DNA from: Escherichia coli
GTDB taxonomy: Bacteria; Pseudomonadota; Gammaproteobacteria; Enterobacterales; Enterobacteriaceae
DNA length: 64,000 nucleotides
NCBI RefSeq assembly: GCF_011045215.1
Contig: NZ_CP049201.1
Direction: 5' to 3' (one strand)
Part shown: positions 1 to 41,860 of the stretch, piece after piece
Position numbering within the stretch: position 1 is the first letter of the stretch
Layout of the letters: the number at the start of each line of letters is the position of its first letter
Notes under the pieces: generated by a model
Seen by the model: only the letters and a program-made list of their open reading frames with translations
What the model was told of the DNA's origin: nothing
Database searches by the model: none
Made by a program: the position numbers and the translations under genes

Positions 1-1
1 T

Positions 2-3850: not shown

Positions 3851-3888
3851 CATAAAAACAAAATTCCTCCGGACCAGGAGGCCGGAGG
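3851..3888 (-). terminator. Rho-independent terminator downstream of the integrase gene
   Basis: Stem cctccgg...ccggagg (3866-3888) followed on the minus strand by a T-rich run. Confidence 0.4.
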
Positions 3889-3928
3889 AGAATTTGTGGA
3901 TTGAGAGAAAATATCAGGACAAGTGCTC

Positions 3929-5417: not shown

Positions 5418-5512
5418 TGGCGGAAGATCACAGGAGTCGAACCTGCCCGGGACCGCTGGCGGCCCCAACTGGATTTGAAGTCCAGCCGCCTCACCGGAGA
5501 CGACGATCTTCC
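5418..5512 (-). tRNA. selC: tRNA-Sec (selenocysteine tRNA)
   Basis: 95-nt reverse-complement match to the E. coli selC sequence (GGAAGATCGTCGTCTCCGGTGAGGCGGCTGGACTTCAAATCCAGTTGGGGCCGCCAGCGGTCCCGGGCAGGTTCGACTCCTGTGATCTTCCGCCA) as I remember it; the 3' CCA is at 5418-5420. Confidence 0.95.
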
Positions 5513-17232: not shown

Positions 17233-19341
17233 TTAATTTCGGTTTCGGGTGACTTTAATCACGTCTGGCATCACGCGGATTTTGCGCATGATATTCGCCA
17301 GATGCACACGGTCACGAGCGGTCAGACGAATAAAGGCGCTGTAGACGCGACCATCTTTCTCTTCCGTATTCAAACTTTGAATATTCGAAGTCGTGGTGTT
17401 AATTGCCGCCGTCAGGTTTGCCAGCGCGCCCTGATGATTGAACATCTCCACCTTGATTTCGGTGATGAACTCCTGCGCCGTCTCTTTATCCCATTCCACA
17501 GCCATAAACTTCTCTGGCTCTTTCTGGTAGCCACGGATGTTACGGCAGGATTCATGGTGGATCACCAGACCTTTACCGGGGCTGACGTGGGCGATAATCG
17601 GGTCGCCAGGAATAGGGCGGCAGCATTTCGCAAAGGTGATCAGCACGCCATCGGCACCTTTAATGGGCAGATGTCCGTGACTTTGGGTTGCCGGTGGAAT
17701 GGAGGCGTCCCCATGTTGCAGATTTTTCGCGACCACCACGCTCATTGCGTTACCAAGTCCGATTTCTGCCAGCAGATCGTCAAGCGTTGCCAGCTTCATA
17801 CGATCCAGCTCGCGCTGAATATTTTCCTGCGGGATTTCATTGAGCTTACGGCTGCCACCCAACGCATGGTTGAGCAGACGACGGCCCAGACTAACGGAAT
17901 CATCACGCTTGAGGTTTTTCAGCAACTGACGAATTTTGGCGCGCGCTTTCGAGCTGACGACAAAGTTCAGCCACGCGGCATTCGGGCGAGCGCCCGGTGC
18001 GGTAATGATTTCAACGGTTTGACCGCTAGTAAGCGGCTGCGACAGCGGGTAAGGCTGGCGGTCGACGCGTGCGCCCACGCAGGCATGACCGATATCGGTA
18101 TGCACCGCATAAGCGAAGTCGACGGGCGTTGCACCGGCAGGCAGCTCGACAATGCGCCCTTCCGGTGTGAAAACGTAAATCTCATCCGGGAAGAGATCGG
18201 ATTTAACGCTCTCGATAAATTCAAACGAGCTACCGGCACTCTGTTGCAGCTCCAGCAGGCTTTGCATCCAGCGCTGGGCGCGGATTTGTGCGGTAGTACT
18301 GGTTTCGCCGTGCTCTTTATAAGCCCAGTGCGCGGCAACACCCATCTCCGCCATCTGGTCCATATCTTCGGTACGGATCTGGACCTCAACCGGCACACCG
18401 TGCGGGCCGATCATCGAGGTGTGCAAAGACTGATAGCCGTTCGCTTTTGGAATGGCGATATAGTCTTTCACGCGGCCCGGACGCGGCTTGTACAGGCTGT
18501 GCATCTGGCCCAGCACGCGATAACAGGTGTCAGAATCATTGACGATCACGCGGAAAGCGTAGATGTCCATGATTGAGTGAAAACGCTGCTCTTTGAGCAC
18601 CATTTTGCAGTAAATCGAATAAAGATGCTTTTCGCGACCACTGACGCGGCACGGTATTCCCGCTTCCTGCAAACGCCCTTCGATTTCAGAAAGAATCTTC
18701 TGGATCATCTCTTTACGGTTGCCGCGCGCGGCTTTCACCACTTCTTTGATTACGCGATAACGGTTGGGATACAGCGCCTCAAAACCCAGCTCTTCGAGTT
18801 CGGTTTTAATGTGGTGGATACCTAAACGGTGCGCCAGCGGGCTATAAATTTCGAGAGTTTCACGGGCGATGCGGCGACGTTTGTCCGGGCGAAGTGAGCC
18901 CAGCGTGCGCATGTTGTGGGTACGGTCGGCAAGTTTGATGAGGATGACGCGGATATCCTGCACCATCGCCATAATCATCTTGCGAAAGTTTTCGGCCTGC
19001 GCCTCTTTCTTATCGCGGAACTTGAGTTTATCAAGTTTCGACACCCCCTCTACCAGCTCGGCGACGCTTTTACCAAAAAGCTGTTCCATGTCCTGGTAGG
19101 TGGCGGGAGTATCTTCAATCACGTCATGCAGCAGCGCTGCCATAAGCGTTTCATAGTCGAGTTTCATCTCGGCCAGAATGCAGGCAACAGCTACCGGGTG
19201 CGTGATATAGGGTTCACCGCTTGAACGTGTTTGCCCCTCGTGAGCATCACGTGCAACGAGATACGCCTGCCGCAGACGCTTGATTTGGTCTTCCGGCAGG
19301 TAGTTTTGAATCAGCTGATTCAGGCTTTCAAACAGATACAA
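17233..19341 (-). CDS. spoT: Bifunctional (p)ppGpp synthase/hydrolase SpoT
   Basis: 702 aa; HD-domain histidines (HDVIEDT), RelA/SpoT synthetase domain, TGS and ACT regions. Confidence 0.95.
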   Translation of the reverse strand: MYLFESLNQLIQNYLPEDQIKRLRQAYLVARDAHEGQTRSSGEPYITHPVAVACILAEMKLDYETLMAALLHDVIEDTPATYQDMEQLFGKSVAELVEGVSKLDKLKFRDKKEAQAENFRKMIMAMVQDIRVILIKLADRTHNMRTLGSLRPDKRRRIARETLEIYSPLAHRLGIHHIKTELEELGFEALYPNRYRVIKEVVKAARGNRKEMIQKILSEIEGRLQEAGIPCRVSGREKHLYSIYCKMVLKEQRFHSIMDIYAFRVIVNDSDTCYRVLGQMHSLYKPRPGRVKDYIAIPKANGYQSLHTSMIGPHGVPVEVQIRTEDMDQMAEMGVAAHWAYKEHGETSTTAQIRAQRWMQSLLELQQSAGSSFEFIESVKSDLFPDEIYVFTPEGRIVELPAGATPVDFAYAVHTDIGHACVGARVDRQPYPLSQPLTSGQTVEIITAPGARPNAAWLNFVVSSKARAKIRQLLKNLKRDDSVSLGRRLLNHALGGSRKLNEIPQENIQRELDRMKLATLDDLLAEIGLGNAMSVVVAKNLQHGDASIPPATQSHGHLPIKGADGVLITFAKCCRPIPGDPIIAHVSPGKGLVIHHESCRNIRGYQKEPEKFMAVEWDKETAQEFITEIKVEMFNHQGALANLTAAINTTTSNIQSLNTEEKDGRVYSAFIRLTARDRVHLANIMRKIRVMPDVIKVTRNRN

Positions 19342-19359
19342 GGGCGACCCGCTTTGTGA

Positions 19360-19635
19360 TTAACGACGACCTTCAGCAATAGCGGTAACGGCTTGTAATT
19401 CAGCGGCTTCCTGCTCTTGCTGTTCCTGGCGTTCGCGAACGTCGAGGATCTGGTTGTTGATCAGACCTTCTTCGATTTCGCGCAGCGCGATTACAGTGGT
19501 TTTATCGTTTTCTTCCGGTACCAGCGGATCCTTTCCGCCTACCTGCATCTGACGAGCGCGACGCGCGGCGACCAGTACCAGGTCAAAACGGTTACCAATT
19601 TTCTCTACAGCGTCCTGAACAGTTACGCGTGCCAT
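19360..19635 (-). CDS. rpoZ: RNA polymerase omega subunit
   Basis: 91 aa, [29 protein letters not shown]. Confidence 0.95.
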
Positions 19636-19689
19636 ACTTAAAAAGCTCCACAGGTGAAGAAATGACTGGGCATGATACTGAAATCAGGT

Positions 19690-20451
<762 letters not shown>

Positions 20452-20478
20452 AGTGATTCACTGCAATAAAGACGATTC

Positions 20479-22867
<2,389 letters not shown>

Positions 22868-23158
22868 GGTTCTCTCCCTAAAAATCTGTCTGGCAGGGTA
22901 GCGATTTGTGCGTATTGTCACGATTGAGATTTTTTAAGGTGAGGGGGAATTGATAACTTGTAGTTATGTGAAATCGCTATTTTCTGTAGCGGAGATGCAT
23001 TCTTCTGACTTCTTGTCTGAGAAAATGCATAAGAAAAAATAGGTTAAAACTGAGGGGTGGAAAAGAAAGGTGCAATGTTTAGCTATTGTATTCACCGCAC
23101 CTGGACTTTGGCTTACGCATCGGGTGTCTCAATCAACAAAAAGAGTTTTTAGTTTCTG

Positions 23159-23983
23159 CTATTTCTTCTCTGTAATTTTTACACAGTTTTCCAACTGCTT
23201 GATGCTGATCTGCGGGGTCGGCAACTCTTCAGGCATGGTTCCGCCAAGTTCCTGAATGGTTTGTCTCACCTTGCGACCCACGTCAAAGTGTGTGGTGTTA
23301 GCTTGCTGTTTTGAATTCACGCCATCCCGCTTGAGTTTTTCTTCTGTTTGGGTAGCTCGAAAGAGATTAGCCGCCAGTTCTGTTGAACCCATATAATCCA
23401 GGATCTTCTGACTCTTTTTCAGCCCCTTCCGCTGATGGATGGCTTTCTGATCTAATCCACCATACAGCCCCCGGTAACCATGATTCTGAAATATGGCGAA
23501 ATCGATAGCTGTCGCTACCCCAGCTTGCTGCGCTGCCTCAACTAATTGTTTGTTATGTTCTTTCAATTCATTTCTCAGAAAAAGACGCTTTTCGTCTTCA
23601 CGAAGTTGCCTGAAAGCTTCATCGTCAGCCAGCTCCTGCCGTCGGGTCTGGATAGCAAAATAAGTTTGCCCTGCCGCAATAACCGGTTTCGCAGGGTCGC
23701 CGTTTTGTACTACCAGGTAACAGGCATAGCGGGAGAGATGAACATCTTCAAGTTCTCGTTGAGCCCCTGAACCTAATACAACCATTTTGGTGGTTTCAAC
23801 GAAATGGTCAGATGCAGCTTGATTGCTGGCTTCGCACGCTTGAGTCGCGCGGGCAAGTACCTTTTGAAAATTGCGCCAGTCCCGATAATCCAGTAACGGT
23901 GCCAATTCTCTCGCTGACCAAAATTCTTGCCCTTCAGTGCCATAATGCCGTATTTCTTCAAAAGGTTGATGATGTTCGTTCAT
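23159..23983 (-). CDS. dinD: DNA-damage-inducible protein D
   Basis: 274 aa from MNEHHQPFEEIRHYGTEGQEFW; a LexA box lies about 45 bp upstream. Confidence 0.85.
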   Translation of the reverse strand: MNEHHQPFEEIRHYGTEGQEFWSARELAPLLDYRDWRNFQKVLARATQACEASNQAASDHFVETTKMVVLGSGAQRELEDVHLSRYACYLVVQNGDPAKPVIAAGQTYFAIQTRRQELADDEAFRQLREDEKRLFLRNELKEHNKQLVEAAQQAGVATAIDFAIFQNHGYRGLYGGLDQKAIHQRKGLKKSQKILDYMGSTELAANLFRATQTEEKLKRDGVNSKQQANTTHFDVGRKVRQTIQELGGTMPEELPTPQISIKQLENCVKITEKK

Positions 23984-24028
23984 TGCCCACTCCATGTGAT
24001 ATCGATTGCAAAGAAAGTAAATCTGTAA

Positions 24029-24044
24029 CTGTATTTATATACAG
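24029..24044. promoter_or_regulatory. LexA operator (SOS box) in the dinD promoter
   Basis: CTGTATTTATATACAG fits the CTGT-N8-ACAG consensus, just upstream of the dinD start. Confidence 0.7.
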
Positions 24045-24130
24045 TTGTGAGTATCTCACGTTCTCAGTGTGCTGGGCAAAAAGACATCGCAAAATCTGGA
24101 ACAGGCACGCAAAACAGAATTGAAAGTTGC

Positions 24131-24169
24131 GGAGAAGAAAAATGCCGCTCTGTTTGAGTGGGCGGCATT
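24131..24169 (-). terminator. Rho-independent terminator downstream of yicC
   Basis: Stem aatgccgc/gcggcatt followed on the minus strand by a T-run. Confidence 0.45.
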
Positions 24170-24204
24170 TGTGAAGGCTGAAAAGTAAGAATTGGCGTTA
24201 CGAG

Positions 24205-25068
24205 TTATTCAATGTTCTGAATCTGCTCGCGCATCTGCTCAATCAACACTTTCAGCTCAATCGCGGAGTTTGTCACTTCGGCATTGATAGACTTCGAAGC
24301 AAGAGTGTTCGACTCGCGGTTGAACTCCTGCATCATAAAGTCCAGACGACGACCAACGGCTTCTTTTTTCTTCAGAATGTTGTACGTCTCTTTAACATGC
24401 GCTTCGAGGCGGTCCAGTTCTTCGGCAACGTCAATTCGTTGTGCCAGCAGAACCAACTCCTGCTCCAGACGGTTGTTTTCCAACTGCACCTGAGCATCTT
24501 CCAGCTTCGCGACCAAGCGTTCACGCTGCCATTGCAGGATTTCCGGCATATGGGAGCGGACTTTGACCACTTCGGCGGTGACGCCTTCCAGACGCTGCTC
24601 AATCAACGCTTTCAGCGCCTGACCTTCGGTTTCGCGAGCGATGATAAAGTCATCCAGGGTGCCATCCAACGCCGCGAGAATTTCAGCGGCAATCGCGTCG
24701 AGATCCTGCTCCTGGGCTGCCATCACGCCCGGCCAGCGTAGAATATCAACCGGGTTGATTTCCCCTTCGTCACTCTGCATTTTTACCCAGTTCGCGGCAG
24801 TTACCAGCTGTTTAGCCAGTTTTTCATTGAGGATCAGCTCACCTTGTGCGCTAACATCTGGCTCATAGCGCAGGGTACATTCCACTTTACCGCGCGTCAG
24901 GCGAGAACGAATACGCTCACGAACGACAGGTTCAAGGCTACGGAACTGCTCCGGCAGACGAAAGTAAGTTTCCAGATAACGCTGGTTTACCGAGCGCATT
25001 TCCCAGGTTGCGCTCCCCCATTCACCCTTGATTTCACGCCGGGCGTAGGCGGTCATACTGCGGATCAT
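24205..25068 (-). CDS. yicC: YicC-family (UPF0701) stress-induced protein
   Basis: 287 aa from MIRSMTAYARREIKGEWGSATWEMRSVNQRYLE; synteny. Confidence 0.9.
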   Translation of the reverse strand: MIRSMTAYARREIKGEWGSATWEMRSVNQRYLETYFRLPEQFRSLEPVVRERIRSRLTRGKVECTLRYEPDVSAQGELILNEKLAKQLVTAANWVKMQSDEGEINPVDILRWPGVMAAQEQDLDAIAAEILAALDGTLDDFIIARETEGQALKALIEQRLEGVTAEVVKVRSHMPEILQWQRERLVAKLEDAQVQLENNRLEQELVLLAQRIDVAEELDRLEAHVKETYNILKKKEAVGRRLDFMMQEFNRESNTLASKSINAEVTNSAIELKVLIEQMREQIQNIE

Positions 25069-25194
25069 AGACGTTCCTGTTTATAAAAGGAGAGGTGGAA
25101 GGATTATAGCCATCGATGCCTTGTCAGGATAGGAATAACCGCCGGAAGTCCGTATAATGCGCAGCCACATTTGTTTCAAGCCGGAGATTTCAAT

Positions 25195-25911
25195 ATGCGT
25201 CCAGCAGGCCGTAGCAATAATCAGGTGCGTCCCGTTACCCTGACTCGTAACTATACAAAACATGCAGAAGGCTCGGTGCTGGTCGAATTTGGCGATACCA
25301 AAGTGTTGTGTACCGCCTCTATTGAAGAAGGCGTGCCGCGCTTCCTGAAAGGTCAGGGCCAGGGCTGGATCACCGCAGAGTACGGCATGCTGCCACGTTC
25401 TACCCACACCCGTAACGCTCGTGAAGCGGCGAAAGGTAAGCAGGGTGGACGCACAATGGAAATCCAGCGTCTGATCGCCCGTGCTCTTCGCGCGGCAGTA
25501 GATTTGAAAGCGCTGGGTGAGTTCACCATTACGCTGGACTGCGACGTGCTTCAGGCTGATGGTGGCACGCGTACCGCGTCGATTACGGGTGCCTGCGTGG
25601 CGCTGGCAGATGCGCTACAGAAGCTGGTGGAAAACGGCAAGCTGAAAACCAACCCGATGAAAGGGATGGTAGCCGCAGTTTCTGTCGGAATTGTGAACGG
25701 CGAAGCGGTTTGCGATCTGGAATACGTTGAAGACTCAGCCGCAGAGACCGACATGAACGTAGTGATGACCGAAGACGGGCGCATCATTGAAGTGCAGGGG
25801 ACGGCAGAAGGCGAGCCGTTCACCCATGAAGAGTTACTCACCTTGTTGGCGCTGGCCCGAGGGGGAATCGAATCCATTGTAGCGACGCAGAAGGCGGCGC
25901 TGGCAAACTGA
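25195..25911 (+). CDS. rph: Ribonuclease PH, intact full-length form
   Basis: 238 aa from [41 protein letters not shown]; reads through to the wild-type C-terminus. Confidence 0.9.
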
Positions 25912-25916
25912 TTTTT

Positions 25917-25944
25917 AAGGCGACTGATGAGTCGCCTTTTTTTT
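25917..25944 (+). terminator. pyrE attenuator hairpin in the rph-pyrE intercistronic region
   Basis: aaggcgactgatgagtcgcc followed by tttttttt, between the rph stop and the pyrE start. Confidence 0.6.
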
Positions 25945-25976
25945 GTCTGTAGAAAAGTAAGATGAGGAGCGAAGGC

Positions 25977-26618
25977 ATGAAACCATATCAGCGCCAGTTT
26001 ATTGAATTTGCGCTTAGCAAGCAGGTGTTAAAGTTTGGCGAGTTTACGCTGAAATCCGGGCGTAAAAGCCCCTATTTCTTCAACGCCGGGCTGTTTAATA
26101 CCGGGCGCGATCTGGCACTGTTAGGCCGTTTTTACGCTGAAGCATTGGTGGATTCCGGCATTGAGTTCGATCTGCTGTTTGGCCCTGCTTACAAAGGGAT
26201 CCCGATTGCTACCACAACCGCCGTGGCGCTGGCGGAGCATCATGACCTGGACCTGCCGTACTGCTTTAACCGCAAAGAGGCAAAAGACCACGGTGAAGGC
26301 GGCAATCTGGTCGGTAGCGCGTTACAAGGACGCGTAATGCTGGTGGATGATGTGATCACCGCCGGAACGGCGATTCGCGAGTCGATGGAAATTATTCAGG
26401 CTAATGGCGCGACGCTTGCTGGCGTGTTGATTTCGCTCGATCGTCAGGAACGTGGGCGCGGCGAGATTTCGGCGATTCAGGAAGTTGAGCGTGATTACAA
26501 CTGCAAGGTGATCTCTATCATTACCCTGAAAGACTTGATTGCTTACCTGGAAGAGAAGCCAGAAATGGCGGAACATCTGGCGGCGGTTAAGGCCTATCGC
26601 GAAGAGTTTGGCGTTTAA
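25977..26618 (+). CDS. pyrE: Orotate phosphoribosyltransferase
   Basis: 213 aa from [38 protein letters not shown]. Confidence 0.95.
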
Positions 26619-26624
26619 AAATAT

Positions 26625-26905
26625 GCGCTGTGCAGGGTTTTTGCTGTGCACAGCGTGATGCGCTTTAAGATATCGTGTTAATCTGCTTTCGCCAGCAGTG
26701 GCAATAGCGTTTCCGGCCTTTTGTGCCGGGAGGGTCGGCGAGTCGCTGACTTAACGCCAGTAGTATGTCCATATACCCAAAGTCGCTTCATTGTACTTAA
26801 GTACGCTTCGCGTACGTCGCGCTGACGCGCTCAGTACAGTTACGCGCCTTCGGGATGGTTTAATGGTATTGCCGCTGTTGGCACCTCTTTTGGCCGCCGT
26901 GATGT
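26625..26905 (+). ncRNA. Putative retron msr/msd non-coding region (template for msDNA); boundaries approximate
   Basis: About 290 bp non-coding stretch between the pyrE stop and the RT start, with several inverted repeats (cgctgtgca...tgcacagcg at 26626-26655; ccggc...gccgg at 26713-26729; gtacttaagtac at 26793-26804). The position immediately 5' of a retron-type RT is the canonical msr-msd location. Exact a1/a2 repeats and the branching G were not resolved by eye. Confidence 0.45.
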
Positions 26906-26915
26906 GGAGAGTGGA

Positions 26916-27875
26916 ATGGATGCTACCCGGATACCCCTTCTGACGCTCGATTTGTTCGGCTCGCCGGGCTGGAGCGCCGATAAAGAAATACAGCGGCTGT
27001 ATGCGCTCAGTAATCATGCCGGACGCCATTACCGACGCATTATTCTTTCTAAACGCCACGGTGGCCAGCGGTTGGTATTAGCCCCTGATTACTTGCTCAA
27101 AACCGTACAGCGCAACATTCTTAAGAACGTCCTTTCACAATTTCCGCTTTCCCCTTTTGCTACAGCCTACCGACCAGGTTGCCCAATCGTCAGCAACGCG
27201 CAGCCACACTGCCAACAGCCGCAGATCCTGAAACTCGATATCGAAAACTTTTTCGATAGCATTAGCTGGTTACAGGTCTGGCGTGTGTTTCGCCAGGCCC
27301 AGTTGCCACGTAATGTGGTAACCATGCTGACCTGGATTTGTTGTTATAACGACGCGTTACCGCAGGGGGCACCAACTTCGCCAGCCATTTCCAATCTTGT
27401 GATGCGCTGTTTTGATGAACGCATAGGGGAATGGTGTCAGGCTCGGGGAATTACCTACACCCGCTACTGCGATGACATGACCTTTTCAGGTCACTTCAAT
27501 GCCCGCCAGGTTAAAAATAAAGTGTGCGGATTGTTAGCGGAGCTGGGCCTGAGCCTCAATCAACGCAAAAGCTGCCTGATAGCTGCCTGTAAGCGCCAGC
27601 AGGTAACCGGGATTGTTGTTAATCACAAACCACAGCTTGCCCGCGAAGCGCGCCGGGCGCTGCGTCAGGAAGTACACTTGTGCCAAAAATATGGCGTTAT
27701 TTCGCATCTTAGTCATCGTGGTGAACTTGATCCTTCTGGCGATCTCCACGCACAGGCAACGGCGTATCTTTATGCTTTGCAGGGAAGAATAAACTGGTTA
27801 TTGCAAATCAACCCTGAGGATGAGGCCTTTCAACAGGCGAGAGAGAGTGTTAAGCGAATGCTGGTTGCAGGGTAA
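26916..27875 (+). CDS. Retron-type reverse transcriptase
   Basis: 319 aa from MDATRIPLL. RT finger/palm motifs: QGAPTSPAISNLV, catalytic YCDD box (YTRYCDDMTFSG) and the retron-characteristic VTG region (RQQVTGIVVNHKP). No extra fused domains. Sits in an insertion between pyrE and slmA. Confidence 0.8.
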   Translation: MDATRIPLLTLDLFGSPGWSADKEIQRLYALSNHAGRHYRRIILSKRHGGQRLVLAPDYLLKTVQRNILKNVLSQFPLSPFATAYRPGCPIVSNAQPHCQQPQILKLDIENFFDSISWLQVWRVFRQAQLPRNVVTMLTWICCYNDALPQGAPTSPAISNLVMRCFDERIGEWCQARGITYTRYCDDMTFSGHFNARQVKNKVCGLLAELGLSLNQRKSCLIAACKRQQVTGIVVNHKPQLAREARRALRQEVHLCQKYGVISHLSHRGELDPSGDLHAQATAYLYALQGRINWLLQINPEDEAFQQARESVKRMLVAG

Positions 27876-27920
27876 GAAAAGCGTCAGGCAGACGTTTCTG
27901 CCTGACCGTTTAGGGGAGAA

Positions 27921-28517
27921 TTACTGCAACTGCGCGGCAATTAGCGGCCAGCGGGCGTCAAAATCATCCGTCGGGCGATATTTAAATTCGCTGCGGACAA
28001 AACGTGACAGCATACCTTCACAGAAGGCCAGGATCTGGCTTGCCAGCAGGGTTTCATCGGTGGTGTAACCTTCACTCTCACGCATTCTCTTTTCACGCAA
28101 TACCTGACGCAGCTGCGCTTCAATACGCTCGAAAAGTTGGTTGATGCGCCCTTGCAGGCGGTCTTGTTCAAACATCAGCGCATGCCCGGTAAGGATGCGG
28201 GTCAGGCCAGGATTACGCTCACCAAAACCGAGGAGCAACAACACGATCAGACGCAGGCGCGCTGTGGTGTCTTTCTCATCTTTCAGAATCAAATTGATGC
28301 GAGTAATCAGGCTATCTTCGATAAACTCAATCAGGCTATCGAACATGCGGGTCTTACTGGGGAAGTGGCGATACAGTGCCGCTTCGGAAACGCCGACAGA
28401 GGCGGCCAGTTTTGCCGTCGTGATACGTTGGCTTCCATCGCTGGATTCCAGCATCAGCGCCAGAGACTGAAGTATTTCCTCGCGACGGTTCCTTTTCGCA
28501 GTTTGTTTTTCTGCCAT
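27921..28517 (-). CDS. slmA: Nucleoid occlusion factor SlmA (TetR family)
   Basis: 198 aa from [52 protein letters not shown]. Confidence 0.9.
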
Positions 28518-28623
28518 GTTACAAAATACCCCTGAAAATAAGCACTTGCCAGGCGGCACCCACGCTATGACCGCAAACGAAATGTTTGCGGCTATGTTAT
28601 GACGTTATTCGGATGCGTATGTG

Positions 28624-29082
28624 TTACTGACGACCAGAGTGACCAAAGCCGCCTTCACCGCGGTCGGTGGCGTCGAAATCTTCCACCAGATTAAATTCAG
28701 CCTGTACTACCGGAACAAAAATCATCTGGGCGATGCGTTCGCCAGGTTGAATGGTGAAGCTGTCCTGACCACGGTTCCACACGGAAATCATCAACTGGCC
28801 CTGATAGTCAGAATCGATCAATCCTACCAGGTTACCAAGCACGATACCGTGCTTATGTCCCAATCCGGAGCGAGGCAGCATCATTGCCGCCAGTGAAGGA
28901 TCGGCAATATGAATCGCCAGCCCGGTCGGAACCAGCGTAGTGTCACCCGGAGCCAGTTCTACGGCGTCGTCGAGACAGGCACGCAGGTCAAGTCCGGCAG
29001 AGCCAGAGGTGGCATAAGTCGGGAGCGGAAATTCCTTCCCAACGCGCGGGTCCAGAATCTTAACGTCGATTTTTTTCATCAT
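28624..29082 (-). CDS. dut: dUTP diphosphatase
   Basis: 152 aa, [35 protein letters not shown]. Confidence 0.95.
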
Positions 29083-30280
29083 AACGGGTCACGATCTCGT
29101 CGAGTAATAATTGGCCAAGGAGCTCTTTTCGCTCAAGCGGTAAGACTTTATCTCCGTCCTGCCAGAAAAGGTGTAATGCGTTGTTGTCGCTGTTAAATCC
29201 TTGAGTTGGCTGGGAAACATCGTTCGCGCAGATCAGATCAAGGTTTTTACGGATACGTTTTTGCCGGGCGTATTCTTCCACATTATTTGTTTCGGCGGCA
29301 AATCCAACGACGTAGGGTCGATGGTCTTTTAGTGCGGCAACGCCTGCGACGATATCGGGGTTTTTAACCATTTTTATTGTTAATTCATCACCCTGCGTGG
29401 CCTGCTTTTTGATTTTTTCTGGGGCCACGGTAGCTGCGCGATAATCCGCCACGGCGGCGCAGCCGATAAAAATATTTTGCTGCTGTACAGAAGCATTCAC
29501 GGCGGCTTCCATTTCCAGCGCAGTCATCACATCAACACGTTTAACAAACGGTGGCGTCGGTAGTGATACCGGACCTGATATCAGCGTGACGTTCGCGCCA
29601 CGACGGGCGGCGGCGGCGGCGATAGCAAAACCCATCTTGCCGGAGCTGTGATTAGAGATATAACGCACCGGATCGAGCGGTTCACGCGTCGGGCCGGCGG
29701 TAATCATAATGTTCAGATGTTTCAGGTCGTTGACGGGCGAAAAATGCGCTACCGCCATATCCACAATGGTTAACGGATCGAGCATTCGCCCAGGGCCGAT
29801 ATCACCACAAGCCTGACTGCCACTGTCTGGCCCCCAGATGAGCAAACCACGGGAGGAAAGCACCTCTAAATTATGCTGCGTGGCAGCGGCACGGTACATC
29901 TGCTGGTTCATGGCGGGGAGCACGGCTACAGGCGCAGGTGTAGCCAGACAAATCGTCGATACCAGGTCATTCGCCATTCCGGCAGCAACACGGGCAATCA
30001 AATCTGCCGTGGCAGGGGCGAGAATCACTAAATCAGCCCATTTACCCAGCTCAATATGGCCCATAGCGGCTTCGGCTGCCGGGTCCAGCAGACTGTCGGA
30101 AACGGGATAACCAGAAACCGCCTGCAAGCTAAGTGGGGTGATAAAGGCTTTTGCCGCTTCGGTCATGGCTACGCGGACGTCGGCCCCGCGATCGCGCAAA
30201 CGACGCACCAGTTCAGGGGTTTTATAGGCAGCAATACCGCCGCTAACGCCGAGAACGATTTTTTTACCGGCCAGGCTCAT
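29060..30280 (-). CDS. coaBC: Bifunctional phosphopantothenoylcysteine decarboxylase / phosphopantothenate-cysteine ligase
   Basis: 406 aa from [20 protein letters not shown]; the track ORF has a 24-codon upstream extension. Confidence 0.95.
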
Positions 30281-30451
30281 GATGATTTTTCCTGTTGGGT
30301 GACACCAGAAGTTGGCGATTTTATCACAATACTTTTGTTGTCGTGCCTTCACCTGAGAATCACTTTGCGAGGCGCTTTCCAGGATTGAAAACTGGCCGTC
30401 GATTTAACGGAACGGCTATGACAGGATGCGAGCACCACAAAGGAGGTGAAG

Positions 30452-31120
30452 GTGAAAAACAATGCACTGCTGTTGATGCCGCGCGAAAAAATGCTGAAGT
30501 TTGGTATTAGCGCCTTAACGGATGTCGAGCTGCTGGCGCTATTTCTGCGTACCGGAACGCGCGGTAAAGATGTATTAACCCTGGCAAAAGAGATGCTGGA
30601 GAATTTCGGCTCTCTTTATGGCTTGTTAACCTCTGAATATGAACAATTTAGTGGTGTTCATGGAATTGGCGTGGCGAAATTTGCCCAGTTAAAGGGGATT
30701 GCTGAACTGGCGCGGCGTTACTACAACGTGCGGATGCGTGAAGAAAGCCCTTTACTCAGCCCGGAGATGACGCGGGAATTTTTACAAAGCCAGCTCACGG
30801 GTGAGGAGCGGGAGATCTTTATGGTGATCTTTCTCGACTCACAACACCGGGTTATAACGCATAGCCGTCTTTTTTCCGGCACGCTAAACCATGTTGAAGT
30901 CCATCCTCGGGAAATTATCCGCGAAGCGATAAAAATAAACGCCTCGGCGCTGATCCTTGCACATAATCACCCTTCGGGTTGTGCTGAACCCAGTAAAGCG
31001 GATAAACTCATTACTGAACGGATAATAAAGAGTTGTCAGTTCATGGATTTACGCGTGCTCGACCATATCGTGATTGGGCGTGGAGAGTATGTTTCTTTTG
31101 CCGAACGCGGCTGGATTTAA
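30452..31120 (+). CDS. yicR: RadC-like JAB-domain protein (UPF0758)
   Basis: 222 aa from a GTG start 5 nt downstream of an AGGAGG Shine-Dalgarno; JAMM-type motif HNHPSG. Confidence 0.85.
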
Positions 31121-31315
31121 CCCGCTATGCGCGATCCTTCGGGATCTTTGTCTGTTCGGGACTTGAGCACATCGCTGAGTCAGCGTATACTACGCCACCT
31201 TTGAGAATCTCGGGTTTGGCATTTGGGCCTGGCAATCGAGAGTTCACATAGAACTGCGATGACCGGGCTGTAAAGCCTGACGAGGCGCCAATACCCCATA
31301 CGAAGCTCGAGCTAA

Positions 31316-31573
<258 letters not shown>

Positions 31574-31590
31574 GTACTTAGAGGAAATAA

Positions 31591-31761
<171 letters not shown>

Positions 31762-31778
31762 TTCTCGCTTTGATGTAA

Positions 31779-31808
31779 CAAAAAACCTCGCTCCGGCGGG
31801 GTTTTTTG
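31779..31808 (+). terminator. Rho-independent terminator of rpmBG
   Basis: aaaaacctcgctccggcggggttttttg: GC-rich hairpin followed by a T-run. Confidence 0.5.
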
Positions 31809-31858
31809 TTATCTGCTTGCCCCCATATTGACTGCATCTGTTCATTCCTGGAGATGCT

Positions 31859-32668
31859 ATGCCTGAATTACCCGAAGTTGAAACCAGCCGTCGCGGCATA
31901 GAACCGCATCTCGTTGGTGCAACCATTCTTCATGCGGTGGTGCGCAACGGACGCTTGCGCTGGCCGGTTTCAGAAGAGATCTACCGTTTAAGCGACCAAC
32001 CAGTGCTTAGCGTGCAGCGGCGGGCTAAATATCTGCTGCTGGAGCTGCCTGAGGGCTGGATTATCATTCATTTGGGGATGTCTGGCAGCCTGCGCATCCT
32101 TCCAGAAGAACTTCCCCCTGAAAAGCATGACCATGTGGATTTGGTGATGAGCAACGGTAAAGTGCTGCGCTACACCGATCCGCGCCGCTTTGGTGCCTGG
32201 CTGTGGACCAAAGAGCTGGAAGGGCACAACGTGCTGGCTCATCTTGGACCGGAGCCGCTTAGCGACGATTTCAATGGTGAGTACCTGCATCAGAAGTGCG
32301 CGAAGAAAAAAACGGCGATTAAACCGTGGCTGATGGATAACAAGCTGGTGGTAGGGGTAGGGAATATCTATGCCAGCGAATCACTGTTTGCGGCGGGGAT
32401 CCATCCGGATCGGCTGGCGTCATCACTGTCGCTGGCAGAGTGTGAATTGTTAGCTCGGGTGATTAAAGCGGTGTTGCTGCGTTCGATTGAGCAGGGTGGT
32501 ACAACGCTGAAAGATTTTCTGCAAAGTGATGGTAAACCGGGCTATTTCGCGCAGGAATTGCAGGTTTACGGGCGAAAAGGCGAGCCCTGTCGGGTGTGCG
32601 GTACGCCGATTGTGGCGACTAAACATGCGCAGCGGGCAACGTTTTATTGTCGGCAGTGCCAGAAGTAA
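31859..32668 (+). CDS. mutM: Formamidopyrimidine-DNA glycosylase
   Basis: 269 aa starting MPELPEVET (N-terminal Pro-Glu catalytic dyad); C-terminal zinc finger CRVCGTPI...CRQCQ. Confidence 0.95.
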
Positions 32669-32706
32669 TTCATGCGCGCCGGATGGCATACCATCCGGCA
32701 TAAACG

Positions 32707-34471
<1,765 letters not shown>

Positions 34472-34822
34472 AGTAAATAGCTGACTTATGGATGTGCTGG
34501 GGATTCTATGTATTTAGCTGTGGCTTTACCATTACTTTTCCCGTTTTTGACTTAAATAGCAATTTACCCGCCAATTCTTGCTGAACATCTATACTTTTTT
34601 TGTATTTTTATGCGATTCATTGATTTCTGCTGTACGTGCAGGAAGGAATCGCAGAGCAACAGTGAAAGAATATGGTTGCTAATGATTATATTTGATTGAT
34701 TTCTTTATTGAAAATCAACAATGTGCTTAAAAATCATTCGGGTCGGATTGCCGCGAAAGAAGTGATACACTAGCGCGTCAATATCAGTGCGGTATCAGTA
34801 TTCAGGTAGCTGTTGAGCCTGG

Positions 34823-34834
34823 GGCGGTAGCGTG
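34823..34834 (+). promoter_or_regulatory. ops element (RfaH-dependent antitermination signal) in the JUMPstart region upstream of waaQ
   Basis: GGCGGTAGCGTG in the 5' leader of the waaQ operon. Confidence 0.7.
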
Positions 34835-34883
34835 CTTTTTCTGCTTCACCTTAATCGGATAATCTCAACAAAAAGAGTTACTT

Positions 34884-35942
34884 GTGGATAAGCCATTTCG
34901 AAGAATTTTGCTCATTAAGATGCGTTTTCATGGGGATATGTTATTAACTACTCCCGTCATTAGTTCGCTGAAAAAAAATTACCCTGACGCAAAAATCGAT
35001 GTGCTGCTTTATCAGGACACCATCCCGATCCTGTCTGAAAATCCAGAGATTAACGCGCTCTACGGCATAAAAAATAAAAAAGCAAAAGCCTCAGAAAAAA
35101 TTGCCAACTTTTTTCATCTCATCAAGGTATTACGTGCCAATAAGTATGACCTTATCGTCAATCTTACCGATCAATGGATGGTTGCTATACTGGTTCGCTT
35201 ATTAAATGCCCGTGTGAAAATTTCCCAGGATTATCATCATCGGCAGTCTGCTTTTTGGCGTAAAAGTTTCACCCATTTGGTGCCGTTGCAGGGTGGAAAT
35301 GTGGTGGAAAGTAACTTATCCGTGCTGACACCATTGGGACTTGATTCGTTGGTGAAGCAGACAACCATGAGTTACCCGCCTGCAAGCTGGAAACGTATGC
35401 GTCGCGAACTTGATCACGCTGGTGTTGGACAAAATTATGTGGTTATCCAACCTACGGCGCGGCAAATCTTCAAATGCTGGGACAACGCCAAGTTTTCCGC
35501 TGTGATTGATGCCTTACATGCTCGTGGTTATGAAGTCGTTCTGACGTCCGGCCCAGATAAAGACGATCTGGCCTGCGTCAATGAAATTGCGCAGGGATGC
35601 CAGACGCCACCAGTAACGGCGCTGGCTGGAAAGGTGACCTTCCCGGAACTTGGTGCGTTAATCGATCATGCGCAGCTGTTTATTGGCGTTGATTCCGCAC
35701 CGGCGCATATTGCCGCTGCAGTTAATACGCCGCTGATATCGCTGTTTGGTGCGACAGACCATATTTTCTGGCGTCCCTGGTCAAATAACATGATTCAATT
35801 CTGGGCGGGAGATTACCGGGAAATGCCAACGCGCGATCAGCGTGACCGAAATGAGATGTATCTTTCGGTTATTCCGGCGGCAGATGTCTTTGCTGCTGTC
35901 GATAAATTACTGCCCTCCTCCACGACAGGTACGTCGTTATGA
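34884..35942 (+). CDS. waaQ: LPS heptosyltransferase III
   Basis: GT9 heptosyltransferase; first gene of the long waa operon. The start is uncertain (GTG at 34884 or a downstream codon). Confidence 0.85.
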   Translation: MDKPFRRILLIKMRFHGDMLLTTPVISSLKKNYPDAKIDVLLYQDTIPILSENPEINALYGIKNKKAKASEKIANFFHLIKVLRANKYDLIVNLTDQWMVAILVRLLNARVKISQDYHHRQSAFWRKSFTHLVPLQGGNVVESNLSVLTPLGLDSLVKQTTMSYPPASWKRMRRELDHAGVGQNYVVIQPTARQIFKCWDNAKFSAVIDALHARGYEVVLTSGPDKDDLACVNEIAQGCQTPPVTALAGKVTFPELGALIDHAQLFIGVDSAPAHIAAAVNTPLISLFGATDHIFWRPWSNNMIQFWAGDYREMPTRDQRDRNEMYLSVIPAADVFAAVDKLLPSSTTGTSL

Positions 35943-37063
35943 TCGTTGCTTTTTGTTTATATAAATATTTTCCCTTTGGCGGTTTGCAGCGCGATTTTAT
36001 GCGTATTGCTCAGACAGTCGCCGCCCGAGGTCATCATGTTCGGGTTTATACCCAGTCGTGGGAAGGCGAATGCCCTGATGTATTTGAACTGATCAAAGTG
36101 CCGGTTAAATCGCATACCAATCACGGGCGCAATGCGGAGTATTTTGCCTGGGTGCAAAAACATTTACGCGAACATCCCGTCGATAAAGTCGTTGGATTCA
36201 ACAAAATGCCGGGGCTGGACGTTTATTATGCCGCTGATGTTTGTTATGCCGAGAAAGTAGCGCAGGAAAAAGGCTTTTTCTATCGCCTGACGTCACGTTA
36301 TCGCCATTATGCCGCCTTTGAGCGGGCAACCTTCGAACAGGGCAAGCCGACACAGCTGCTAATGCTGACAGATAAGCAAATCGCCGATTTCCAGAAACAT
36401 TATCAGACTGAAGCGGAGCGTTTTCATATTCTGCCACCGGGGATTTATCCTGATCGTAAATATAGCCAGCAGCCAGCTAATAGCCGTGAAATCTTCCGTA
36501 AGAAGAATGGAATAACCGAACAACAATATTTATTGTTGCAGGTCGGTTCAGACTTCACGCGTAAAGGTGTCGATCGTTCCATTGAAGCACTTGCTTCGTT
36601 ACCGGATTCGCTGCGCCACAACACATTGCTATATGTTGTTGGGCAGGATAAACCGCGAAAATTTGAGGCGCTGGCAGAAAAACGCGGCGTGCGCAGTAAT
36701 GTTCACTTCTTCTCGGGGCGCAACGATGTCTCGGAATTAATGGCGGCGGCGGATTTATTACTGCATCCTGCCTACCAGGAAGCGGCGGGAATTGTGCTGC
36801 TGGAAGCGATTACTGCAGGATTACCGGTACTAACAACAGCCGTTTGTGGCTATGCGCATTATATTGTCGAGGCCAATTGCGGCGAGGCTATTGTTGAGCC
36901 ATTCCGCCAGGAAACATTGAATGAGATTTTACGCAAAGCGTTAACGCAATCTTCATTGCGCCAGGCCTGGTCGGAAAATGCGCGACATTATGCTGATACA
37001 CAAGATTTATACAGTCTGCCAGAGAAAGCGGCGGATATCATAACGGGTGGTCTGGATGGTTGA
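35939..37063 (+). CDS. waaG: LPS core glucosyltransferase I (GT4)
   Basis: 374 aa; overlaps the waaQ stop by 4 nt (ATGA). Confidence 0.9.
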
Positions 37064-37853
37064 ACTTAAAGAGCCGTTTGCCACGTTATGGCGCGGTAAA
37101 GATCCTTTTGAGGAAGTTAAAACCTTGCAGGGTGAGGTATTTCGTGAACTGGAAACTCGCCGTACTCTGCGCTTTGAAATGGCGGGCAAAAGCTATTTTC
37201 TCAAATGGCATCGCGGCACGACCCTGAAAGAGATAATCAAAAATTTACTCTCATTGCGGATGCCAGTATTAGGCGCAGACCGCGAATGGAATGCGATTCA
37301 TCGACTGCGGGATGTCGGCGTTGATACTATGTATGGGGTGGCATTTGGCGAAAAAGGCATGAATCCGCTGACCAGAACTTCATTTATTATTACCGAAGAT
37401 CTGACACCAACCATAAGTCTGGAAGATTACTGTGCTGACTGGGCGACTAACCCTCCAGATGTTCGCGTAAAGCGTATGCTTATTAAGCGTGTCGCGACGA
37501 TGGTGCGCGATATGCATGCTGCGGGCATTAACCACCGTGACTGTTATATCTGTCATTTCCTGCTGCACTTGCCTTTTTCCGGTAAGGAAGAGGAGTTAAA
37601 AATTTCGGTAATTGACCTGCACCGGGCGCAGCTTCGCACGCGCGTTCCACGTCGTTGGCGCGATAAAGATCTTATTGGGCTTTATTTTTCTTCGATGAAT
37701 ATCGGCCTGACTCAGCGGGATATCTGGCGGTTTATGAAAGTGTATTTTGCCGCCCCGCTTAAAGACATTCTCAAGCAGGAACAAGGACTGCTGTCGCAAG
37801 CAGAAGCAAAAGCCACAAAAATCAGGGAAAGAACGATTCGAAAATCGTTGTAA
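37056..37853 (+). CDS. waaP: LPS core heptose(I) kinase
   Basis: 265 aa from [14 protein letters not shown]; kinase-like region [17 protein letters not shown]. Confidence 0.85.
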
Positions 37854-37895
37854 CCCGTAACTTATTTTTGCCAAAATTTTGGATACAGAATAAAT

Positions 37896-38903
37896 ATGTC
37901 TCAACTCAATGATAGTGACATCATCCTTTTTGAGTATAATTTTCATTATCAAAATATAAGATCTAAAAATACTCTTGATATAGCATTTGGTATTGACAGA
38001 AATTTTCTTTTTGGATGTGGTGTAGCCATCGCATCTATTCTATTAAACAATAGAGAAATCTCTTGTGAATTTCATGTTTTCACAGATTATATCAGTGATA
38101 AAGACAAGTTATATTTTTCCGATTTAGCAAAACAATATAATTCAAGAATTAATATTTATGTTATCAATTGTGATAAGCTGAAGTCATTACCAAGCACGAA
38201 AAACTGGACTTACGCTACATATTTTCGATTTATAATTGCAGACTATTTCTATAATAAACATGAAAAAATACTATATCTTGATGCAGATATTGCTTGCAAG
38301 GGTAGTATTAAAGAACTCTTAGATTATCAATTCTCTACTAATGAAATTGCCGCAGTTGTAGCTGAAAGAGATGTTGAATGGTGGCAGAATCGAGCCTCGG
38401 TATTAACTACACCACAATTAGCTTCTGGATATTTCAATGCTGGTTTTTTACTGATAAATATTGATGAGTGGAATCTTAATAACATTTCGTCAAAAGCTAT
38501 TGAAATGTTGCGTGATCCAGATTGGGTAAGTAAAATCACCCACCTTGATCAAGATGTACTGAATGTATTATTGAATGGTAAAGTGAAGTTTATTTCTGGG
38601 AAATATAATACCCGATATAGTATTAACTATGAATTAAAAGACAAAGTTGATAATCCAGTCAATGATGACACTGTGTTTATACACTATGTGGGACCTACAA
38701 AACCCTGGCATGAATGGGCTGACTATCCGGTGTCACGTAGTTTTTTGATCGCCAAAGCATCTTCTCCGTGGTGTAAAGAAGATTTACTTAAACCTGTAAA
38801 TAGCAATCAGTATCGGTATTGTGCAAAACATAAATTTAAACAAAAGCATTATATGGCGGGCATTTTTAATTATTTAAAGTATTATAAAGAAAAATGCTTT
38901 TAA
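37896..38903 (+). CDS. waaI: GT8-family LPS outer-core glycosyltransferase (position matches waaI of the R3 core type)
   Basis: 335 aa; GT8 hallmarks (LYLDADI DxD motif, HYxGxxKPW). Symbol assigned from gene order only. AT-rich. Confidence 0.5.
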   Translation: MSQLNDSDIILFEYNFHYQNIRSKNTLDIAFGIDRNFLFGCGVAIASILLNNREISCEFHVFTDYISDKDKLYFSDLAKQYNSRINIYVINCDKLKSLPSTKNWTYATYFRFIIADYFYNKHEKILYLDADIACKGSIKELLDYQFSTNEIAAVVAERDVEWWQNRASVLTTPQLASGYFNAGFLLINIDEWNLNNISSKAIEMLRDPDWVSKITHLDQDVLNVLLNGKVKFISGKYNTRYSINYELKDKVDNPVNDDTVFIHYVGPTKPWHEWADYPVSRSFLIAKASSPWCKEDLLKPVNSNQYRYCAKHKFKQKHYMAGIFNYLKYYKEKCF

Positions 38904-38928
38904 AGATTTAAGGTTAAAATAATTCAAT

Positions 38929-39636
38929 ATGATATATAATAAAACGATAAATGGGTTGAAAGTTTTCATAAAAGATAATGATCCCTTTTATGAGCAAGTT
39001 CTGAATGACTTTTTAACTTGCAGGGTTAAAACATTAAAAGTTTTTCGTTCTATTGATGATACTAAAGTTATTCTTATTGACACTGCTCGTGGACCTCTTG
39101 TACTTAAAGTTTATGCGCCAAAGCATAAAATGATCGAACGTTTCTTAAAATCTTGCATAAAAAAAGATTATTATGAAAATTTAATTTATCAAACCGATCG
39201 GGTACGTGGTGAAGGCATTCAATCAATTAATGACTATTTTTTGCTTGCTGAACGTAAAACATTAAATTTCGCGCATTATTATATTATGCTCATTGAGTAT
39301 ATTGAAGGTGTCGGGTTAAATGAGTATTTGGAAATTTCTGAAGAACTGAAGGATCAATTATCAGAATCGATAAAAGAGTTGCATCAGCATGGAATGGTGT
39401 CTGGCGATCCTCATAAAGGAAATTTTATAGTATCCGAAAAAGGTTTAAGACTAATTGACCTTTCAGGTAAAAAAACAACCGCAGTTTTAAAAGCAAAAGA
39501 TCGCATTGATCTTGAACGGCACTATAATATAAAAAATGAATTGAAAGACTTTGGCTATACATATCTTATATTCAAAAAGAAAATTAAAAAAGCAATCAGG
39601 GATGTAAAAGTCAAACTAGGTTTGAAGAGCAAATAA
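38929..39636 (+). CDS. waaY: LPS core heptose(II) kinase
   Basis: 235 aa, WaaP/WaaY-like small kinase, placed between the two GT8 genes. AT-rich. Confidence 0.6.
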   Translation: MIYNKTINGLKVFIKDNDPFYEQVLNDFLTCRVKTLKVFRSIDDTKVILIDTARGPLVLKVYAPKHKMIERFLKSCIKKDYYENLIYQTDRVRGEGIQSINDYFLLAERKTLNFAHYYIMLIEYIEGVGLNEYLEISEELKDQLSESIKELHQHGMVSGDPHKGNFIVSEKGLRLIDLSGKKTTAVLKAKDRIDLERHYNIKNELKDFGYTYLIFKKKIKKAIRDVKVKLGLKSK

Positions 39637-39660
39637 TGATTATGATGAAGGGTAATTAAA

Positions 39661-40674
39661 TTGGATTTTAAACATCTTACTCAATTTAAAGATATAATTG
39701 AACTGGACAAGCGCCCCGTTAAACTTGATGAACGGGAAACGTTTAATGTCTCATGGGGTATTGATGAGAACTACCAGGTTGGGGCTGCGATTTCAATTGC
39801 TTCAATTCTTGAAAATAATAAACAAAACAAATTTACCTTTCACATAATCGCTGATTACTTAGACAAAGATTATATTGAATTATTATCACAATTAGCAACG
39901 AAGTATCAAACAGTAATTAAATTATATCATATTGATTCTGAGCCATTGAAGACGCTACCTCAATCAAATATCTGGCCAGTATCTATTTATTATCGTTTGC
40001 TTTCATTTGACTATTTTTCTGCGCGATTGGATTCATTATTATATCTTGATGCTGATATCGTCTGTAAGGGTTCATTGAACGAGTTAATAGCATTAGAGTT
40101 TAAAGATGAATATGGGGCTGTGGTAATTGATGTAGATGCTATGCAAAGTAAAAGCGCTGAGCGTTTAGGTAATGAGGATTTTAACGGTAGCTATTTTAAC
40201 TCTGGTGTAATGTATATTAATTTACGGGAATGGTTAAAACAAAGACTAACGGAGAAATTCTTTGATCTATTATCAGATGAGTCAATTATCAAAAAATTAA
40301 AATATCCGGATCAAGATATTTTAAACTTAATGTTTCTACATCATGCTAAAATATTACCGAGAAAATATAACTGTATTTATACTATAAAGTCAGAATTTGA
40401 AGAAAAAAATAGTGAATATTACACCCGGTTTATTAATGATGAAACTGTCTTCATACATTATACTGGTGTAACTAAGCCATGGCATGATTGGGCGAACTAC
40501 GCATCTGCAGATTATTTTCGTAATATTTATAATATATCACCATGGAGAAATATACCTTATAAAAAAGCTGTTAAAAAACATGAGTACAAAGAAAAATATA
40601 AACACTTGCTTTACCAGAAAAAATTTCTCGATGGTTTTTTTACAGCAATTAAATATAATTTTATGAAAGGTTAA
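39661..40674 (+). CDS. waaJ: GT8-family LPS outer-core glycosyltransferase (position matches waaJ of the R3 type)
   Basis: 337 aa; GT8 hallmarks (LYLDADI, HYTGVTKPW). Appears to use a TTG start at 39661 because in-frame stops lie immediately upstream. Symbol from gene order only. Confidence 0.5.
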   Translation: MDFKHLTQFKDIIELDKRPVKLDERETFNVSWGIDENYQVGAAISIASILENNKQNKFTFHIIADYLDKDYIELLSQLATKYQTVIKLYHIDSEPLKTLPQSNIWPVSIYYRLLSFDYFSARLDSLLYLDADIVCKGSLNELIALEFKDEYGAVVIDVDAMQSKSAERLGNEDFNGSYFNSGVMYINLREWLKQRLTEKFFDLLSDESIIKKLKYPDQDILNLMFLHHAKILPRKYNCIYTIKSEFEEKNSEYYTRFINDETVFIHYTGVTKPWHDWANYASADYFRNIYNISPWRNIPYKKAVKKHEYKEKYKHLLYQKKFLDGFFTAIKYNFMKG

Positions 40675-40682
40675 CATTCGAG

Positions 40683-41825
40683 ATGGTTGATAAAATAATA
40701 TTTACAGTTACTCCTATTTTTTCAATTCCTCCTCGCGGAGCGGCCGCTGTTGAAACGTGGATGTATCAGGTCGCTCAGCGTACCAATTTCCCAAATCGTA
40801 TTGTTTGTATCAAGAATCCAGGATACTCAAATTACACCTTTGTTAATGATAATTGTAGTATTCATAGGGTTGGATTCAGTCGCATATATAAGCGGTTATT
40901 TCAAAAATGGACAAGACTTGATCCTCTTCCATATTCACAGAGAATATTGAATATTGCACATGATTTTCCTATAACGAAAGAAAGTGTTATTGTAGTTCAT
41001 AATAGTATGAAGCTATACACTCAAATTCGTAAGCGAGCTCCTCAGGCAAGAGTGGTTATACATATGCATAATGCATTTGAACCAAAATTGCTTGAGCAAA
41101 ATGTTAAAATGATAGTGCCTAGTTTATACTTGAAAAAGTATTACCAATCTTATTTAGCAAATGCAGATATTGAGATTGTACCAAATGGAATTGATTTAGA
41201 AACCTATCAATCTACTTTTCAGCCGATCACTAGAAGCGAACTTAATATCTCCCCTGAAGAGAAAATTATTTTTTATGCTGGGCGTATCGTCCCTGACAAA
41301 GGCATATTGCTGTTGATGCAATCATTCGAAAAATTGGCCGCTGCTCACAAAAATTTAAAATTAGTTGTGATTGGTGATTATACAGAAATGAGTAAAAGTG
41401 ACAAAGGTGCATATCAACGCAATGTCAGGGAAATTGCAAAACGTTTGAAGGATCGTTGCATTATGTTAGGAAGCATACCGCCTGAAAAGATGCATTGTTA
41501 TTACCCACTGGCAGATTTAGTCGTCATTCCTTCCCAGTTCCAGGAACCATTTTGCATGGTGGCAATTGAAGCTATGGGGGCTGGTAAGCCTGTTTTAGTG
41601 AGTACGCGTGGGGGGATGACGGAATTTGTCAAAGAAAATACTACGGGATTCCATTTAAAAGAACCTATGACTGCAGACTCCATAAGCAGCGATATTTTAA
41701 AAACGTTAGCGAATCCTGAATTAACAGCAGTTGCAAAGCAAGGTCAGGATTTTGTGTTTGATCACTACAGTTGGGATGGCGTAACTCAAAGATTCGAAGA
41801 GGTTATTCATAATTGGTTTGAATAA
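40683..41825 (+). CDS. waaD: GT4-family glycosyltransferase, last gene of the waaQ operon (position matches waaD of the R3 type)
   Basis: 380 aa; GT4 EX7E-type region (IPSQFQEPFCMVAIEAMGAGKPVLVSTRGGMTEFV). Followed by a hairpin with T-run (aaaaaggccgcattatgcagccttttttatttttt). Confidence 0.45.
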   Translation: MVDKIIFTVTPIFSIPPRGAAAVETWMYQVAQRTNFPNRIVCIKNPGYSNYTFVNDNCSIHRVGFSRIYKRLFQKWTRLDPLPYSQRILNIAHDFPITKESVIVVHNSMKLYTQIRKRAPQARVVIHMHNAFEPKLLEQNVKMIVPSLYLKKYYQSYLANADIEIVPNGIDLETYQSTFQPITRSELNISPEEKIIFYAGRIVPDKGILLLMQSFEKLAAAHKNLKLVVIGDYTEMSKSDKGAYQRNVREIAKRLKDRCIMLGSIPPEKMHCYYPLADLVVIPSQFQEPFCMVAIEAMGAGKPVLVSTRGGMTEFVKENTTGFHLKEPMTADSISSDILKTLANPELTAVAKQGQDFVFDHYSWDGVTQRFEEVIHNWFE

Positions 41826-41860
41826 ATAAAAAGGCCGCATTATGCAGCCTTTTTTATTTT

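Follow-up and report, generated by a model that had tools for sequence, protein, structure and literature searches.

An intact rph-pyrE operon with a canonical attenuator, followed by retron Ec107, in a non-K-12 Escherichia coli

The pyrBI leader of Escherichia coli is subject to UTP-sensitive transcription-translation coupling, in which the ribosome masks an intrinsic terminator hairpin. The rph-pyrE operon follows the same working principle, with a ribosome moving close behind a UTP-starved RNA polymerase. The two systems differ in the element that is translated, which in pyrBI is a short dedicated leader peptide and in rph-pyrE the 3' end of rph, a housekeeping gene of full size. The product of this gene, RNase PH, is a phosphorolytic 3'-5' exoribonuclease that takes part in maturing the 3' ends of tRNAs. 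It is well established that the footprint of a ribosome at the rph stop codon extends over the 5' arm of the hairpin ahead of pyrE.

Four later papers (PMC11148124, PMC9997739, PMC5933015, PMC2784333) trace the attenuation model for pyrE to Bonekamp et al. 1984 and Jensen 1993. According to them, read-through of the UTP-sensitive attenuator into pyrE needs close coupling between rph translation and transcription. In the rph-1 allele, an early stop uncouples the two processes, which leads to pyrimidine starvation (same papers).

We compared this operon with its counterpart in a 64,000-nucleotide stretch of E. coli DNA (the window). The gene order is that of the wild-type E. coli operon, with yicC in reverse orientation followed by rph and pyrE in forward orientation. 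The features of the locus are as follows:

25153-25158, + strand: TATAAT hexamer, possible -10 of the rph-pyrE promoter region, 37 nt 5' of the rph ATG (sequence reading)
25195-25911, + strand: rph, full-length RNase PH, 238 aa plus TGA (translation, TIGR01966, Pfam, 1r6l alignment)
25861-25865, + strand: G5 run, of which one G is lost in K-12 rph-1 (alignment with NC_000913.3)
25880-25882, + strand: TAG, out of frame in the window; after the rph-1 deletion it ends translation prematurely, 29 nt upstream of the natural stop (in-silico deletion)
25909-25911, + strand: natural rph stop TGA, with the extended stem 5 nt and its G+C core 7 nt further downstream
25912-25916, + strand: T5 run from the rph stop to the hairpin, identical in K-12 (sequence reading)
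25917-25938, + strand: pyrE attenuator hairpin, AAGGCGACU / loop GAUG / AGUCGCCUU (terminator scan, RNA folds, K-12 identity)
25937-25944, + strand: T8 run belonging to the intrinsic terminator, overlapped by the extended stem in its first two positions (scan)
25964-25969, + strand: GAGGAG, Shine-Dalgarno-like by inferred function, 7 nt upstream of the pyrE ATG (sequence reading)
25977-26618, + strand: pyrE, orotate phosphoribosyltransferase, 213 aa plus TAA (TIGR00336 at 240.6 bits, PF00156)

The interval 25195-25976, singled out in an earlier note on this DNA, consists exactly of rph and the rph-pyrE spacer, of which 25976 is the last base.

Translation from the ATG at 25195 yields a frame of 238 codons that closes with the TGA at 25909-25911. 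The product scores 380.8 bits against TIGR01966, the NCBIfam equivalog model for ribonuclease PH (cutoff 141.5 bits), with residues 2-236 matching profile positions 1-235/236. Its domains appear in the order of an RNase PH, namely PF01138 at residues 10-140 (107.1 bits) and then PF03725 at residues 157-222 (58.3 bits). Furthermore, residues 2-237 align with residues 3-238 of 1r6l, the solved structure of Pseudomonas aeruginosa RNase PH, at E = 3.7e-104. The C-terminal segment 223-238, which is missing from the rph-1 product, is complete, and the C-terminus is that of the K-12 rph+ protein. RefSeq annotates a 717-bp rph of the same span (WP_001247093.1) in Combat11I9, a genome that is 100% identical over window positions 25100-26000; a 717-bp rph is also found in TUM24564 and ST167, and the same 642-bp pyrE coding sequence is annotated in matching genomes. 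Judged from its sequence, the RNase PH is complete and presumably active.

Upstream of the gene, positions 25100-25194 are identical to MG1655. A scan for consensus sigma-70 promoters upstream of rph found no full -35/-10 pair, leaving a lone TATAAT visible. We regard the hexamer at 25153-25158 as a possible promoter element and claim no promoter here.

To define the allele, the window was aligned with the locus in MG1655 (NC_000913.3), whose rph carries the annotation 'truncated RNase PH'. Over 901 bp around rph, the two sequences differ by six substitutions and one indel. Two of the substitutions are non-synonymous, and the resulting V137A and I214T exchanges are the differences between the RNase PH of the window and the K-12 wild-type protein. 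The indel, the only one within rph, lies at 25861-25865, where the window reads GGGGG and K-12 reads GGGG. The MG1655 frame encodes 228 aa ending in GESNPL*, and removing one G from the window in silico recreates this very product.

The K-12 strains that carry rph-1 (MG1655, W3110, EMG2, BW25113 and others) share the locus, the promoter-proximal sequence and the attenuator with the window. They also share the PyrE protein accession, WP_000806177.1, which occurs in K-12-type and non-K-12 genomes. The difference resides in rph itself, with four G, a truncated protein of 228 aa and a stop 29 nt early in the rph-1 allele, compared with five G and 238 aa in the window, from which the rph-1 allele is absent. 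An alignment with the wild-type rph of ST167 contained no indel at all.

The spacer between rph and pyrE (25912-25976, 65 nt) is identical to that of MG1655 base for base, including the hairpin and the T-run. The terminator scan returned AAGGCGACT-GATG-AGTCGCCTT at 25917-25938, followed by T8, so that hairpin and T-run together span 25917-25944. RNA folding agreed with the scan and gave a stem of 9 bp with -14.2 kcal/mol for the hairpin alone. In a region of 2 kb, the generic terminator scan found 4 sites against 2.6 expected, with no enrichment over shuffled sequences, and the fold z-score for the 77-nt spacer was weak (-1.64). We base the attenuator call on identity to the K-12 element characterised by experiment, and not on scan or fold statistics. 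Rfam at gathering thresholds had no match in the rph-pyrE spacer or in the ncRNA region of the retron described below, and thus there is no curated family for the pyrE attenuator; the only Rfam matches elsewhere in the window are tRNA-Sec and a JUMPstart element.

Taken up point by point, the earlier description of this segment stands. It had held that rph is intact, as the 238-aa frame and the full-length TIGR01966, Pfam and 1r6l matches bear out; that it differs from rph-1 of MG1655 and W3110 at the frameshift known near the 3' end, which corresponds to the one-G indel at 25861-25865; and that an attenuator hairpin with a T-run precedes pyrE, which both scan and folding recovered. Alignment with K-12 rph, the check it proposed, leaves the one-G difference as the only rph indel, and the indel against wild-type rph that would have refuted it is absent in the comparison with ST167.

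Natural and laboratory variants of this element exist. About 9% of complete genomes, ST167 among them, carry an attenuator in which one C is missing from the 3' arm; up to 485 of the 5,426 contain an exact match to the corresponding 75-mer. With this deletion, the stem drops in stability, from -14.2 to about -11 kcal/mol. In ST167 (locus L003, 1313-1376), the 1-bp C deletion is equivalent to window position 25935-25936, and the form in the window is the canonical one. The same position is affected in pyrE[G-41deltaG], a suppressor that evolved from MG1655 in the laboratory (PMC5933015). A second alteration, the 82-bp deletion rph-pyrE delta-82 bp, recurs as an adaptive deletion in the laboratory evolution of MG1655 (PMC2784333). 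In the K-12 strain NBRC 3301 (locus L005, about 2201-2214), we found an 82-bp deletion over the 3' end of rph that matches it, and RefSeq annotates rph of this strain as a partial pseudogene. What both the delta-82 bp and the G-41 stem deletion affect is this same stop-to-hairpin geometry, or else how stable the hairpin is. In contrast, the window has neither the delta-82 bp nor a G-41-type deletion; its hairpin is not weakened and nothing is missing from the 3' end of its rph.

According to the established model, RNA polymerase would slow down at low UTP, and a ribosome near the end of rph would keep close behind it. Once at the rph stop, 5-7 nt before the hairpin, this ribosome would mask the 5' arm and no hairpin would form. 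With the hairpin blocked, transcription would proceed into pyrE. At high UTP, the polymerase would outrun the ribosome, the hairpin would form and transcription would terminate. In K-12 rph-1, translation stops 29 nt early, the hairpin is never masked and pyrE is under-expressed. The stop-to-stem distance of 5-7 nt in the window fits the published coupling geometry. As translation of rph in the window extends to the natural stop, coupling is expected to work normally. From published work we infer UTP-dependent read-through and normal PyrE levels. The normal rph-pyrE coupling that had been proposed for this DNA is thus what its canonical attenuator and spacer would predict.

Compared with the wild-type operon, the window has the same gene order and 238-aa product, the same 65-nt spacer, hairpin and T8, and the same distance between stop and hairpin; relative to wild-type K-12, it shows allelic substitutions only. 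The region is almost certainly the wild-type E. coli rph-pyrE bicistronic operon with its UTP-sensitive, translation-coupled attenuator.

An open rph frame could still encode a non-functional enzyme, or the operon could be uncoupled in some other way, through an inactivating substitution or an altered attenuator. The two exchanges that separate this RNase PH from the K-12 protein would be candidates for the former, and the 1-bp 3'-arm deletion in up to 485 genomes demonstrates that natural attenuator variants occur. We consider such a cryptic defect very unlikely. The protein reaches 380.8 bits across the full TIGR01966 profile, and the accession WP_001247093.1 is annotated in all three non-K-12 genomes checked, which are unrelated natural isolates; because of this annotation, the A137/T214 variant is unlikely to be defective. 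Furthermore, spacer and hairpin of the window are canonical and identical to K-12. On the full-profile score, the shared accession and the canonical attenuator, this explanation was rejected.

Downstream of this wild-type operon, the window departs from K-12. A segment of 1,302 bp (26619-27920), identified as retron Ec107, is inserted after pyrE relative to MG1655:

26619-27920: retron Ec107 (Retron-Eco5) insertion, 1,302 bp, flanked by the stop codons of pyrE and slmA
26691-26711 and 26862-26882: a1/a2-type inverted repeats
26776-26797 / 26833-26854: inner stem of the retron
26916-27875: reverse transcriptase, 319 aa, with YCDD catalytic box (profile searches)

The retron takes the place of the palindromic pyrE-slmA spacer of K-12, a replacement by Ec107 that has been described previously (PMC6868368; PMC7736814). 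Hairpins flank both ends of the insertion, and there is no space for an effector gene. A search of the retron DNA against the phage collection gave no match. Of 5,426 complete E. coli genomes, 381 carry the retron.

The Ec107 reverse transcriptases form a sister clade to reverse transcriptases linked with PRTase-like effectors, and pyrE, which adjoins the retron, encodes a PRTase (Mestre et al. 2020, PMC7736814). PyrE, or the attenuator-controlled read-through of rph-pyrE, could on these grounds be functionally tied to the retron, and intact rph-pyrE coupling would then matter for retron function. We regard this tie as highly doubtful. A strong hairpin lies directly 3' of the pyrE stop and counts against it, as does the doubt voiced by Mestre et al. 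2020 themselves (PMC7736814).

The earlier note had also read the intact rph as confirmation of a non-K-12 background. The strain is indeed non-K-12, but this follows from other evidence; since there are K-12 strains that are rph+, a K-12 background can be neither assigned nor excluded from rph status alone. An rph+ genotype has been reported for K-12 strains WG1, JM83, JM109 and XL1-Blue (PMC9997739; PMC11148124), and the only branch of K-12 that an intact rph excludes is MG1655/W3110/EMG2 (PMC9997739). Likewise, the laboratory strain TUM24564 (locus L004, 145-3646) is a K-12 genome with an rph+ genotype: in 3,501 bp, the one G of rph is all that separates it from MG1655.

With such strains in existence, the window might be thought to derive from an rph+ K-12 strain, be it a repaired MG1655 or one of the early lineages (WG1, JM83 or DH1, for example). 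The divergence data rule this out and leave it practically no probability. Besides the six substitutions in 901 bp with their two amino acid changes in RNase PH, the window has 329 mismatches to MG1655 in 18.3 kb (98.2% identity). It is only 91% identical over 27920-37749 (9.9 kb), and its waa core genes at 37749-43178 have no alignable MG1655 counterpart. The 1,302-bp insertion weighs in the same direction: pyrE directly adjoins slmA in MG1655, TUM24564 and NBRC 3301, none of which has an insertion there. Near-identity to K-12, pyrE-slmA adjacency and a K-12 waa cluster, which mark a K-12 background, are all absent from the window. The window is non-K-12, as evidenced by the two RNase PH substitutions, a divergence of about 2%, the foreign waa region and the retron insertion.

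The frequency of the alleles was assessed by exact-match counts of a 64-mer for rph-1 and a 75-mer for the attenuator variant. The 901-bp query was matched in 5,424 of 5,426 complete E. coli genomes, and the rph-1 64-mer occurred in 167 of the 5,426. Among the matches listed (60 of the 167), all are K-12 laboratory derivatives, including MG1655, W3110, BW25113, J53, HMS174, MFDpir and evolved clones. With the rph-1 64-mer confined to 167 of 5,426 genomes, the intact allele is the norm (~97%). The use of intact rph as a strain marker, also suggested earlier, is justified in so far as it excludes the MG1655/W3110/EMG2 branch, but the marker is weak, with ~97% of genomes lacking the rph-1 64-mer. 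Retron Ec107, at 381 of 5,426 genomes, is a far better strain marker.

There is scarcely any chance that the G5 run is a homopolymer artefact of sequencing or assembly that hides a frameshifted strain. Some platforms do make errors in such runs, and only one base is at issue, but G5 is the majority state: the non-K-12 genomes inspected have it, as does TUM24564, an rph+ K-12 genome. An independent complete genome matches the 901 bp around the run at 100%, and rph-1 was seen, among the matches listed, only in K-12 derivatives, to which the window does not belong.

The genomic surroundings of the operon are of mixed affinity. Over the 16 kb of positions 18000-34000, identity to any complete E. 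coli genome reaches 98.9% at most. The rph segment matches Combat11I9, which has no retron, at 100%, and the retron is shared at 100% identity with strain 48, a deer isolate. Judging from these mixed identities, 18000-34000 is a local mosaic. Within it, dinD (23159-23995, - strand) contains about 215 bp in its 5' part (23737-23951) that blastn left unaligned with MG1655, with flanks at ~98%. The gene is an open frame of 278 aa in the window and is annotated as frameshifted in strain 48.

Further features were noted in the rest of the window:

704-2308: putative membrane protein ORF, 534 aa
2455-3498, - strand: ORF of 347 aa
3929-5119, - strand: putative P4-type integrase-like ORF
5422-5512, - strand: tRNA-Sec selC
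34796-34834: JUMPstart element (Rfam)

The left end of the window up to selC (1-5512) has no counterpart at the selC locus of K-12, and from its gene content this DNA looks like a genomic island inserted at selC. On the other side, the stretch from slmA to waaQ/waaG (27920-43178) runs at ~91% against MG1655, with 37749-43178, in the waa LPS-core cluster, unalignable. By its sequence, this non-aligning waa segment indicates a non-K-12 core type.

The finding as such is already known: a textbook operon in its ordinary, ancestral form. The informative markers of this strain are the adjacent retron and the overall divergence, and not rph. For physiology, the intact operon means that the strain should be free of the pyrimidine starvation and RNase PH defects that complicate work with MG1655- and W3110-derived strains.
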